Assembly: GCF_003019035.1 (NCBI RefSeq)
Contig: NZ_CP027447.1
DNA length: 64,000 nt
From: Escherichia coli
GTDB taxonomy: Bacteria > Pseudomonadota > Gammaproteobacteria > Enterobacterales > Enterobacteriaceae
Reading direction: 5' to 3' (one strand)
The position numbers were made by a program, and so were the translations under genes. Below, one piece after another: positions 2,908 through 56,477 of the stretch. Below the pieces are notes generated by a model. It made no database searches. It was not told where the DNA came from and saw only the letters and a program-made list of their open reading frames with translations. Every line of letters starts with the position of its first letter. Position 1 is the first letter of the stretch.

Positions 2908-3054
2908 GGTCATTCTCCTTTACGATGATAACCGTCGCGTAAGCAAAAAATTGCCCCATTTTTTTGGATTCCTCAGCGACAACAACTGTCGATTTTTAGT
3001 AAATATCTATCCGGTACGAAGCCCGGCCTCTTGGTATGAATGATTGGTTTGAAG

Positions 3055-3092
3055 CAAAAAATAACCGACGCTGATGAAACGTCGGTTTTTAG
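3055..3092 (-). terminator. putative bidirectional rho-independent terminator downstream of yeeY
   Basis: palindrome AACCGACG-ctgatgaaa-CGTCGGTT flanked by an A-run upstream and a T-run downstream. Confidence 0.45.
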
Positions 3093-3173
3093 TCATTTTT
3101 TGACAGCGGCGCATTGTGCCTAAATGGGGGAGAAATGACAAGAGAATGAGAGGCTTGTCATAATAATTTTTCT

Positions 3174-4973: not shown

Positions 4974-5077
4974 CCGTTATCTCCTGATACACCTTAGATC
5001 TATAAGGCTACGCTAGCGTATCAAAACTGACAATTCATTCTATGAATGAAATCGAAACTGTTAGCAAATATACAATT

Positions 5078-5177
5078 GCCTGATGCGCTCCGCTTATCAG
5101 TCCTACAAAAACATCAATATATTGAATTTAGGCAACATTTGTAGACCAGATAAGGCATTCACGCCGCATCCGGCAGG
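5078..5177. repeat. REP / BIME-like palindromic units (two inverted REP copies)
   Basis: gcctgatgcgctccgcttatcag..tcctaca and the inverted tgtagaccagataaggcattcacgccgcatccggcagg match the canonical E. coli REP consensus by eye. Confidence 0.55.
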
Positions 5178-5331
5178 AACAAAGCCCACTTTAGTTACAG
5201 AACACAATGTTCTTGAGGGTTTTAAAGACATATTTTCACGATTACTTTTTTAACGTAGCCACTCCTGGCCCCCTCCTTTCCCCGCTCATTCATTAAACAA
5301 ATCCATCGCCATAAAATATATAAAAAACCCC

Positions 5332-5361
5332 TTGCTTTCTAACGTGAAAGTGGTTTAGGTT
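5332..5361 (+). promoter_or_regulatory. his operon promoter (-35 TTGCTT, 18-bp spacer, -10 TAGGTT)
   Basis: hexamers read directly about 40-70 bp upstream of hisL; matches the textbook his promoter arrangement. Confidence 0.55.
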
Positions 5362-5399
5362 AAAAGACATCAGTTGAATAAACATTCACAGAGACTTTT

Positions 5400-5450
5400 A
5401 TGACACGCGTTCAATTTAAACACCACCATCATCACCATCATCCTGACTAG
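5400..5450 (+). CDS. hisL: his operon leader peptide
   Basis: 16-codon ORF MTRVQFKHHHHHHHPD with seven consecutive His codons. Confidence 0.9.
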   Translation: MTRVQFKHHHHHHHPD

Positions 5451-5513
5451 TCTTTCAGGCGATGTGTGCTGGAAGACATTCAGATCTTCCAGTGGTGCAT
5501 GAACGCATGAGAA

Positions 5514-5548
5514 AGCCCCCGGAAGATCATCTTCCGGGGGCTTTTTTA
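5514..5548 (+). terminator. his attenuator (rho-independent terminator hairpin)
   Basis: AGCCCCCGGAAGAT-CATC-TTCCGGGGGCT followed by TTTTTT, between hisL and hisG. Confidence 0.85.
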
Positions 5549-5595
5549 TTGCGCGGTTGATAACGGTTCAGACAGGTTTAAAGAGGAATAAGAAA

Positions 5596-6495
5596 ATGAC
5601 AGACAACTCTCGTTTACGCATAGCTATGCAGAAATCAGGCCGTTTAAGTGATGACTCACGCGAATTACTGGCGCGCTGTGGCATTAAAATCAATCTTCAC
5701 ACCCAGCGCCTGATTGCGATGGCAGAAAACATGCCGATTGATATTCTGCGCGTGCGTGACGATGACATTCCCGGTCTGGTAATGGACGGCGTGGTAGACC
5801 TTGGGATTATCGGCGAAAACGTGCTGGAAGAAGAGCTGCTTAACCGCCGCGCCCAGGGTGAAGATCCGCGCTACTTTACCCTGCGTCGTCTGGATTTCGG
5901 CGGCTGCCGCCTTTCGCTGGCAACGCCGGTTGATGAAGCCTGGGACGGTCCGCTCTCCTTAAACGGTAAACGTATCGCCACCTCTTATCCTCACCTGCTC
6001 AAGCGTTATCTCGACCAGAAAGGTATCTCTTTTAAATCCTGCTTACTGAACGGTTCTGTCGAAGTTGCGCCGCGTGCCGGACTGGCGGATGCGATTTGCG
6101 ATCTGGTTTCCACCGGTGCCACGCTGGAAGCTAACGGCCTGCGCGAAGTCGAAGTTATCTACCGCTCGAAAGCCTGCCTAATCCAGCGCGATGGCGAAAT
6201 GGAAGAATCCAAACAGCAACTGATCGACAAACTGCTGACCCGTATTCAGGGTGTTATCCAGGCGCGCGAATCAAAATACATCATGATGCACGCACCGACC
6301 GAACGCCTGGATGAAGTCATCGCCCTGCTGCCAGGTGCCGAACGCCCAACTATTCTGCCGCTGGCAGGTGACCAACAGCGCGTAGCGATGCACATGGTCA
6401 GCAGCGAAACCCTGTTCTGGGAAACGATGGAAAAACTGAAAGCGCTGGGTGCCAGTTCAATTCTGGTCCTGCCGATTGAGAAGATGATGGAGTGA
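5596..6495 (+). CDS. hisG: ATP phosphoribosyltransferase
   Basis: translation [29 protein letters not shown]..., 299 aa from the internal ATG preceded by AAGAGG SD. Confidence 0.9.
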
Positions 6496-6500
6496 TCGCC

Positions 6501-12017
<5,517 letters not shown>

Positions 12018-12024
<7 letters not shown>

Positions 12025-12629
12025 CAGAACAACAACGTCGCGAACTGGACTGGGAAAAAACCGACGGACTGCTGCCGGTGATTGTGCAACATGCGGTATC
12101 CGGCGAAGTGTTAATGCTGGGCTATATGAATCCAGAAGCCTTAGACAAAACCCTAGAAAGCGGCAAAGTCACCTTCTTCTCGCGCACTAAACAGCGACTG
12201 TGGACCAAAGGCGAAACGTCGGGCAATTTCCTCAACGTAGTGAGTATTGCGCCGGACTGCGACAACGACACGTTACTGGTGCTGGCGAATCCCATCGGGC
12301 CAACCTGCCACAAAGGCACCAGTAGCTGCTTCGGCAACACCGCTCACCAGTGGCTGTTCCTGTATCAACTGGAACAACTGCTCGCCGAACGTAAATCTGC
12401 CGACCCGAAAACCTCTTACACAGCCAAACTGTATGCCAGCGGCACCAAGCGCATTGCGCAAAAAGTGGGCGAAGAAGGCGTAGAAACCGCACTGGCAGCA
12501 ACGGTACATGACCGCTTTGAGCTGACCAACGAGGCATCTGACTTGATGTATCACCTGCTGGTATTGTTGCAGGATCAGGATCTGGATTTAACGACGGTAA
12601 TTGAGAACCTGCGTAAACGGCATCAGTGA
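12018..12629 (+). CDS. hisI: bifunctional phosphoribosyl-AMP cyclohydrolase / phosphoribosyl-ATP pyrophosphatase
   Basis: 203 aa; last gene of the his operon. Confidence 0.9.
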
Positions 12630-12729: not shown

Positions 12730-13437
12730 ACCAGCCGCGCCCTAACAGGCGCACACGATCTGACATTTGCATCCAACTTCGTTACTTACGGCCCGTAAAC
12801 GGGCTGCCCGGATAGGGAATCGATAACTGCTCTCCCATTTTATCCTCTTCAAGCTGGTGCTTTATGTAATCCTGTATCTTCGCCGTGTTCTTACCCACCG
12901 TATCGACGTAATACCCTCTGCACCAGAACTCCCTGTTCCTGTATTTGAATTTCAAATCAACAAACTGCTCGTAAAGCATTAGACTGCTTTTCCCTTTCAG
13001 ATATCCCATAAAGCCGGATACGCTCATTTTGGGCGGGATCTCCACAAGCATATGGATATGATCTGCACAGCATTCAGCTTCCAGAATCCGTACACTTTTC
13101 CACTCACACAGCTTTCTCAAAATACAGCCTATTGCTCTACGCTTCTCTCTGTAGAACACCTGTCTTCGGTATTTTGGCGCAAATACTATGTGATATTTAC
13201 AGTTCCATCGGGTGTGCGCTAAGCTCTTTTCGTTCCCCATTGGGACCCCCTTTTGATTTCTTGTTTGACACTTGCAGTTGCCAGACCGCAAGGTGTTTTA
13301 ACAAATCAAAAGGGGTTTTAATAACTGGCTCAAAGCTGAAAGCTTTCCGGAACCCCCAGCCTAGCTGGGGGTTTTCTGTGCACAAAAAAACGGGCAAGGT
13401 GTCACCACCCTGCCCATTTTCTTTAAAACCGAAAAGA
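12730..13437 (-). mobile_element. IS200-family (IS200/IS605) insertion sequence, about 0.7 kb; ends approximate (+/- 15 bp)
   Basis: single Y1/HuH transposase gene plus the characteristic structured end (hairpins AACCCCCAGCCTAGCTGGGGGTT and GGGCAAGGTGTCACCACCCTGCCC at 13365-13430) upstream of tnpA; no terminal inverted repeats expected for this family. Confidence 0.7.
12782..13240 (-). CDS. tnpA: IS200-type Y1 (HuH) transposase TnpA
   Basis: 152 aa from MGNEKSLAHTRWNCKYHIVFAPKYRR...; HuH motif (HIHMLV) and C-terminal catalytic Tyr region (YIKHQ). Confidence 0.85.
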   Translation of the reverse strand: MGNEKSLAHTRWNCKYHIVFAPKYRRQVFYREKRRAIGCILRKLCEWKSVRILEAECCADHIHMLVEIPPKMSVSGFMGYLKGKSSLMLYEQFVDLKFKYRNREFWCRGYYVDTVGKNTAKIQDYIKHQLEEDKMGEQLSIPYPGSPFTGRK

Positions 13438-14421
13438 TTACTTCACGTTGTAATTACGCAGAGCGTTACGCCCCAACACAATCCCCGCGCCCACCATACC
13501 GCCCAGCAGCACTGCCAGAATCAAGGTGATTGCTTTCTTCGGGCTATCGCGACGAATTGGCAGTGTGGGTTTCATAACGTAACGGTAGGCATGAATATCA
13601 AGATCATCAACCTTCAGACTTTCGATATCCAGCAGGTTTTGACGAGTCTGATAATAGTTTGGCGAGAACACAAGCGGACGAGTCGCTTCGTGCTTAATCA
13701 TCGACCCCAGTGCTTCGCTACCTAACAAAAGCAACGTGTCCTGAGTAATATTTTCACCAGTCTGCTGAATCTGCGGCTTTGTTACCTGCGCCTGATTCGC
13801 ATACTGCAACGCTTCCTGAATCTGGCGGATACGCAGCGTTTTTTGCTCCTGAGCCACCACTTCCTGAGTTTTCAGGGAATCCTGCAATGTTTTCATGCCC
13901 AACGCAATATTATCCTTCAGGTCCTTTTCCAGCTCTTCATTCACTCGGTCATCAACTTGTTGAATGTATTCAGCCAGCTTTTTCTGTGCATCCGCCGCCG
14001 TTTTCCCAACATAAGAAACAGCTAACGGTAACGGCTGGTTTTTAACAGCGGGCTCGATGGTCAGTTTTTCGCGTTCTTCCTGATTATCCAGCGTTTCCGC
14101 TAATGCAGAGAAAGCGGAACTGAAGCGACCAATCAACGCCTCCTGTAAATCAGCTACTTTTGGCGCAGCCTGGCCATAAATTACATTCATGGCGTTGTTA
14201 TAGCCGGCAATTTGCCCCACATCAGGTTGAGTGACAATGGCTGTTGATGTCCATTGCTCTTTCGCTACTGCCAGGTATCCAATAGCCAACACGATAGCCA
14301 CAATGACTGTGGCGATAATGGTCATCTTACCGCGCCACAGTTGTACCAGTAAATCAATTAAATCAATCTGTTCCGGGTCATTGTTGTGCCCAGAAATATT
14401 ATTATTTTCAACTTTCATCAT
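13438..14421 (-). CDS. wzzB: O-antigen chain-length determinant (polysaccharide co-polymerase 1)
   Basis: 327 aa, N- and C-terminal TM segments flanking a long coiled periplasmic region; adjacent to ugd as in E. coli. Confidence 0.85.
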   Translation of the reverse strand: MMKVENNNISGHNNDPEQIDLIDLLVQLWRGKMTIIATVIVAIVLAIGYLAVAKEQWTSTAIVTQPDVGQIAGYNNAMNVIYGQAAPKVADLQEALIGRFSSAFSALAETLDNQEEREKLTIEPAVKNQPLPLAVSYVGKTAADAQKKLAEYIQQVDDRVNEELEKDLKDNIALGMKTLQDSLKTQEVVAQEQKTLRIRQIQEALQYANQAQVTKPQIQQTGENITQDTLLLLGSEALGSMIKHEATRPLVFSPNYYQTRQNLLDIESLKVDDLDIHAYRYVMKPTLPIRRDSPKKAITLILAVLLGGMVGAGIVLGRNALRNYNVK

Positions 14422-32359: not shown

Positions 32360-32398
32360 CACGCTACCGCCCCTGGCTTAACAGCTACCAGAGCACTG
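32360..32398 (-). promoter_or_regulatory. JUMPstart element with ops site (GGCGGTAG) in the rfb 5' leader
   Basis: minus-strand sequence CAGTGCTCTGGTAGCTGTTAAGCCAGGGGCGGTAGCGTG; ops octamer at 32364-32371. Confidence 0.75.
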
Positions 32399-41999: not shown

Positions 42000-42099
42000 G
42001 TCGTTACCCTTTTTCAGGCAATAGTTGGCCCTGACCGAAACGGCCAATTTTGTTTTTTCGTTATTTACCGGAGAATTAATCCGGTTGATTATTCAACGG

Positions 42100-56438: not shown

Positions 56439-56477
56439 CACGCTACCGCCCCTGGCTTTTTAGCTACCAATACACTG
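56439..56477 (-). promoter_or_regulatory. JUMPstart-like element with ops site (GGCGGTAG) in the colanic acid operon leader
   Basis: CACGCTACCGCCCCTGGCTT on plus, i.e. AAGCCAGGGGCGGTAGCGTG on minus, about 185 bp upstream of the wza start; ops at 56443-56450. Confidence 0.7.

Follow-up and report, generated by a model that had tools for sequence, protein, structure and literature searches.

The histidine operon leader and attenuator in a 64,000-nucleotide stretch of the Escherichia coli chromosome

Positions 5400-5549 of the window (the whole stretch of 64,000 nucleotides that we analysed) are almost certainly the native control region for E. coli's his operon, a ribosome-mediated transcription attenuator. 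The original prediction called this segment an intact textbook his attenuator and the analysis supports that call. The Rfam His_leader model (RF00514) matches 5426-5549 on the plus strand with 132.6 bits (gathering score 49; E = 8.8e-22), the leader is one base off that of K-12 and the hisGDCBHAFI operon lies directly downstream. The attenuator is already known; it is a standard, textbook element of E. coli and this copy is without departure from it.

The his leader is a textbook case of attenuation and also serves as the standard model for hairpin-dependent transcriptional pausing. In amino-acid operon attenuators a short leader peptide with many residues of the regulating amino acid is combined with a hairpin for pausing and with antiterminator and terminator hairpins that exclude one another. 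The trp, leu, thr, phe and ilv attenuators follow the same logic with peptides and RNAs of their own; three stem-loops (six segments) make up the his leader, against four segments in trp. The his system is not known to have a repressor.

The leader, its His codons and its operon

The RF00514 match is full length (model positions 1-126 of 126) and the sequence and predicted structural features of that family are in place: a leader ORF with His codons, a G+C-rich terminator followed by a U-run, exclusive antiterminator pairings, and his genes downstream on the same strand. Those genes, hisG, hisD, hisC, hisB, hisH, hisA, hisF and hisIE, occupy 5596-12629 (plus strand) as ORFs assigned by NCBIfam equivalog matches. 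All eight ORFs are full length, each scores above the NCBIfam curated cut-off, and hisG starts at 5596, downstream of the terminator hairpin called E:F below. A search of 5426 complete E. coli genomes for the 371 bp segment that spans the leader (5250-5620) found it in 5423 (99.9%), nearly always on the chromosome, where the annotation of the region reads 'hisL: his operon leader peptide', 'His leader region' and 'hisG'. Strain SCU-301 is 100% identical over the 371 bp. Given the RF00514 match, the near-K-12 leader and the intact his genes, the window is the E. coli chromosome at the his locus.

The leader peptide gene hisL (5400-5450, plus strand) consists of the codons ATG ACA CGC GTT CAA TTT AAA CAC CAC CAT CAT CAC CAT CAT CCT GAC TAG and its ORF translation is MTRVQFKHHHHHHHPD*, with the TAG stop at 5448-5450. 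The same interval is annotated as hisL in strain SCU-301 and in K-12. Seven His codons had been claimed for the peptide, and seven consecutive ones (CAC CAC CAT CAT CAC CAT CAT) are read from the sequence at 5421-5441 (plus strand). These codons are the sensor of the attenuator in that the speed of the ribosome across them reports the level of charged tRNA-His (PMC4046918). Seven CAY codons in a row are found at this one place in the 64-kb window, and 100 dinucleotide-preserving shuffles contained no such run. The His run overlaps the first stem of the leader RNA, segment A of which begins at 5433.

Seven adjacent histidines (HHHHHHH) bear a superficial likeness to a His-tag, and the run could on that ground, and on nothing more, be read as an engineered affinity tag or cloning scar with the hairpin as a vector terminator. 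However, hisL is an ORF of 16 codons that has no fusion partner, the 371 bp region is chromosomal in the 5423 genomes, and yeeZ and hisG flank the leader in their native order. Moreover, a leader ending in 7xHis-Pro-Asp-stop is found in 76 DNA stretches from a collection of species-representative genomes, nearly all of them titled Enterobacteriaceae. A tag is ruled out by the shortness of the ORF, by its native neighbours and by how widespread the leader is, and the histidine run is natural, as had been argued from the sequence at the outset.

The hisL-hisG leader of K-12 MG1655 (b2018) has the same peptide and the same choice of His codons; the promoter, the A to F segments, the pause signal and the distance to hisG are shared as well. 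Over positions 5300-5610 of the window 306 of 311 aligned bases are identical to K-12 MG1655. Only one of the five differences falls within the transcribed leader, a T at 5530 beside the terminator loop where K-12 has C; the others are at 5307 and 5328 (upstream of the -35 hexamer), at 5592 (in the region of the hisG ribosome site) and in hisG codon 5. T5530 adds an A-U pair to the terminator hairpin, which has a predicted energy of -32.9 kcal/mol and a 3-nt loop versus -32.2 kcal/mol and a 5-nt loop for the K-12 allele (C5530). In an alignment of 57 enterobacterial leaders, T is the majority base at this position (T in 38, C in 14).

Further upstream the two chromosomes differ, since the yefM-yoeB toxin-antitoxin pair located upstream of the promoter in K-12 is absent from the window. 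The yeeZ-hisL intergenic region is polymorphic, with 211 bp in the window (5051-5261) and 652 bp in K-12 MG1655, where it contains yoeB-yefM. Homology to K-12 is lost after 5050 and begins again at 5262, at -107 relative to the inferred start of his transcription. The 211 bp segment of the window carries two REP-like palindromic units, at about 5078-5106 and 5142-5177.

The altered terminator base and the divergence upstream of -107 could be taken as signs that the leader is a decayed, nonfunctional copy and that attenuation has been lost in this strain, a reading to which we give almost no credence. The upstream divergence is explained by the absence of yefM-yoeB, and this arrangement is found with at least 80% query coverage in 1193 of the 5426 complete E. 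coli genomes, whereas from 5262 onward the promoter and leader are 97.5% identical to K-12. The T5530 substitution changes the energy of the hairpin by just 0.7 kcal/mol and gives the state found in 38 of the 57 leaders, and all eight his genes are intact. Decay is thus ruled out by a neutral majority-state substitution, an intact promoter-proximal sequence and an intact operon, and the leader retains its assignment as the native attenuator.

The Salmonella enterica his attenuator is close in design as well. The 16-residue peptide is identical and the stems are the same in the two aligned rows, but the Salmonella T-run is longer (TTTTTTTT versus TTTTTTATT in E. coli) and there are minor differences in loops and spacers.

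Promoter, pause signal and competing stem-loops

The inferred his promoter (5332-5361, plus strand) is composed of a -35 hexamer TTGCTT at 5332-5337, an 18-nt spacer and a -10 hexamer TAGGTT at 5356-5361. The stretch is identical to that of K-12, and we take it to be the his promoter as known from K-12 and Salmonella. It is missing from a consensus promoter scan since each hexamer is a weak match that agrees with the consensus at only 3 of 6 positions. The transcription start was placed by fitting published residue numbers to the sequence. In the K-12 leader, U49, G127, U128 and G129 are numbered from +1 (PMC10989985), and only a start at the A at 5369 (plus strand) puts T at 5417 and G, T and G at 5495-5497. 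If +1 is 5369, the start lies about 30 nt upstream of hisL and the leader RNA would be about 180 nt in length, ending at the terminator.

The top of the A:B stem forms a predicted pause hairpin (CCUGA/UCAGG, 5442-5446/5455-5459, plus strand) of 5 bp with an 8-nt loop and an energy of -4.6 kcal/mol. The putative his pause site spans 5461-5471 (plus strand), with G(-10) at 5461, the pause U(-1) at 5470 and G(+1) at 5471, 11 nt past the base of the hairpin. The exact position, U5470, is presumed from the his pause RNA (...CGAUGUGUGCU). Class I pauses are defined by a G-10 Y-1 G+1 consensus and a hairpin at -30 to -11 (PMC9291695). With its hairpin at 5442-5459 and with G5461, T5470 and G5471, the window has the sequence of a class I (hairpin-dependent) signal, and judged by these bases the classic his pause signal appears intact. 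Neither the pause signal nor the promoter, both of which are present in the region, was mentioned in the original prediction.

The leader RNA (plus strand throughout) is predicted to form two mutually exclusive sets of stems. The A:B hairpin (A, 5433-5446; B, 5455-5468; 12 bp, -11.8 kcal/mol) and the C:D hairpin (5469-5476/5485-5492, CTGGAAGA/TCTTCCAG; 8 bp, -9.9 kcal/mol) were placed from the Rfam consensus structure together with folding. The alternative B:C hairpin (5450-5460/5466-5477; 11 bp, -12.1 kcal/mol) is the first half of the antiterminator configuration. The second half, the D:E antiterminator (5483-5496/5515-5528; 12 bp, -16.7 kcal/mol), ties up the terminator's 5' arm. Because D (ATCTTCCAGTGG) and F (ATCTTCCGGGGG) constitute a direct repeat, they compete for E.

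The last hairpin, E:F (5507-5526/5530-5549), is the attenuator proper, an intrinsic terminator of 20 bp with a 3-nt loop and an energy of -32.9 kcal/mol. Its core at 5515-5540 (GCCCCCGGAAGA/TCTTCCGGGGGC) has a G+C content of 69%, and CTTTTTTATT comes after it; the T-run at 5541-5549 reads TTTTTTATT. A terminator hairpin with a T-run had been proposed and was found as described, although the proposed end of the feature (5548) is inside the T-run tail, whereas the Rfam match ends at 5549. Despite the -32.9 kcal/mol hairpin, a consensus terminator scan lists no terminator at 5507-5549, which we regard as a false negative. With the upstream A-tract (AGAAAG) paired to the T-run, too few T residues are left past the maximal stem, and the scan missed E:F; the scan rule is blind to A-tract/T-tract terminators of this kind. 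That the scans list neither the promoter nor the terminator could be read as a sign that the his promoter or the attenuator is absent. We rejected this reading because the hexamers are weak "by design" and the terminator stem reaches into the T-run.

Folding of 5400-5560 gave -70.4 kcal/mol, compared with a mean of -41.1 kcal/mol for shuffled sequences (z = -7.4; 0 of 200 shuffles folded as well). The original prediction had proposed secondary-structure prediction as the check for the antiterminator and terminator pairings, and both sets of pairings were recovered: A:B, C:D and E:F in the untranslated leader, and B:C and D:E by constrained folding. A:B + C:D + E:F is the minimum-energy fold of the untranslated leader, and upon prefix folding, in which the RNA is extended to mimic transcription, A:B forms first in the lengthening transcript, C:D next and E:F last. 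When the RNA was masked to 5448, as if a ribosome were stalled late in the His run, B:C became the best fold once C existed, and it is the minimum-energy fold with A masked and D not yet made. With the same mask and the RNA end at 5529 (before F), B:C + D:E is the minimum-energy fold at -28.8 kcal/mol.

Prefix folding replaced the folding of full-length leaders with a ribosome mask, which at equilibrium gave the terminator every time and antitermination never. Equilibrium prefers E:F whenever F exists (-32.9 versus -16.7 kcal/mol for D:E), and readthrough therefore has to depend on kinetics, with D:E lasting until polymerase is across the U-run. If the ribosome is modelled at the stop codon, C:D is the first to form, but at an RNA end of 5529 the minimum-energy fold is D:E rather than C:D. 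Hence, thermodynamics alone does not separate the two translated states. This failure is a limit of the method and no evidence against the attenuation model.

Conservation, mechanism and a proposed second input

To gather homologues one genome per species was scanned with the pattern 7xCAY-CCN-GAY-TAG. The 76 DNA stretches so obtained contain 56 distinct leaders, which with the window make an alignment of 57. The genera represented are Escherichia, Salmonella, Citrobacter, Enterobacter, Raoultella (of the Klebsiella group), Kluyvera, Kosakonia and others, the 7xHis-Pro-Asp-TAG pattern having sampled mainly Enterobacteriaceae. Pairing is retained in 98.1% of cases for A:B/C:D/E:F and in 97.7% for B:C/D:E, against 37-55% when the partners are slid by 1-3 columns, a contrast to be read with two facts in mind: the sequence of the window itself supplied the structures, and the stem columns hardly vary. 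A:B and B:C are paired in 57 of 57 leaders, C:D in 100% and D:E in 99%. Variation is confined to the loops of C:D and E:F, the spacer between D and E, and the sequence past the T-run.

The sole polymorphic stem base, position 5473 (A in 41 leaders, G in 16), lies opposite a U and is paired in both states in C:D as well as in B:C; it is a change that would be permitted to a base under a double pairing constraint. Among the 57 leaders no antiterminator pair has changed on both sides and shuffle controls reach the observed covariation values. Informative covariation is lacking because the stems are nearly invariant and the search pattern demanded the same peptide end. As a property of the aligned sequences, the conservation supports constraint on the leader without independently proving the pairings. 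One member of the set differs in the sensor itself. The his leader of Trabulsiella odontotermitis TbOT1.10 (1185-1345 of its stretch, minus strand) has ten consecutive His codons rather than seven, owing to a 9-nt in-frame CAC/CAT expansion; the remaining attenuator is unchanged.

The sequence elements are in place, the leader is nearly identical to the K-12 leader that has been studied and both sets of pairings are thermodynamically feasible. Ribosome-mediated his attenuation has been described for Salmonella and E. coli, and the model that opposes A:B/C:D/E:F to B:C/D:E has Salmonella as its experimentally dissected case (PMC4046918). In experiments on the near-identical K-12 and Salmonella leaders, the frequency of termination responds to charged tRNA-His via ribosome stalling (PMC4046918), and a role for the pause has also been described (PMC9291695). 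By analogy with this K-12 and Salmonella literature, from which pausing, stalling, termination and readthrough are all taken, polymerase would start at about 5369 and pause at U5470 behind the hairpin at 5442-5459. The pause would let a ribosome load on hisL and catch up, and so synchronise ribosome with polymerase. When charged tRNA-His is plentiful the ribosome would pass the seven His codons, reach the TAG at 5448-5450 and cover A and B; C:D and E:F would then pair, and E:F with its U-run would end transcription before hisG. When charged tRNA-His is scarce the ribosome would stall on 5421-5441 and cover A only, upon which B:C and D:E would form, F would stay single-stranded and, for want of a terminator, polymerase would read into hisGDCBHAFI. 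A leader that is not translated would form A:B, C:D and E:F and would also terminate. Nothing that we found contradicts the native attenuator explanation.

A DnaA-dependent riboswitch model put forward for K-12 holds that the leader RNA is additionally or mainly switched by DnaA at 'rDnaA boxes', bound DnaA holding the ribosome and blocking D:E so that E:F is favored. The model draws on RNA immunoprecipitation of the leader with DnaA and on de-attenuation when boxes 1/2 or box 3 are deleted (PMC10989985). The proposed boxes span residues 46-56 and 126-134 from +1 (about 5414-5424 and 5494-5502), and as the window is identical to K-12 over them the model would hold for the window as it would for K-12. 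However, its authors report no in vitro binding and no conclusive proof of direct binding (PMC10989985), the boxes have two mismatches each to the consensus, and deleting the boxes takes away or displaces attenuator stems and codons as well. Moreover, the model supplements ribosome-mediated attenuation rather than replacing it. Taken together these points make a DnaA switch unlikely in our view, and we hold ribosome-mediated attenuation to be the control of this leader. The broader proposal that the leader RNA carries a second input beside stalling, such as binding of DnaA (or of DnaA plus tRNA-His), seems to us likewise unlikely. If true, the candidate DnaA sites would be the conserved stretches of single-stranded RNA that precede A or separate D from E, and a second input would help to explain why leader positions outside the stems are nearly invariant across the Enterobacteriaceae. 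It would then be shared by every his leader in E. coli and not be particular to this window.

The chromosomal setting

Several other RNA elements were found in the window. A full-length match to STnc490, a family of Hfq-binding sRNAs (RF01405), is located at 13250-13373 on the minus strand (146.4 bits versus a gathering score of 56), between hisIE and an ORF of 327 residues (13438-14421, minus strand) that we take to be wzzB from the K-12 map. STnc240, an enterobacterial sRNA family (RF02074), matches 3054-3128 (minus strand) with 68.2 bits versus 55, upstream of a yeeY-like ORF. A match to algC RNA (RF02929, a cis-regulatory family of Rfam) is at 42004-42053 (minus strand; 78.2 bits versus 33.8) and, compared with the consensus, lacks 2 nt in its hairpin loop. 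There are also two JUMPstart elements (RF01707, gathering score 35), at 32360-32398 (minus strand, 61.1 bits) and 56439-56477 (minus strand, 57.3 bits). In E. coli, JUMPstart elements mark the leaders of two gene clusters downstream of his-gnd, one for O-antigen and one for colanic acid. The O-antigen cluster between the two elements is presumably the most strain-variable part of the window.

The value of the leader assignment is one of annotation only. It anchors the window at the his / O-antigen / colanic-acid region of the E. coli chromosome, excludes an engineered His-tag, and shows the his operon and its control to be intact.
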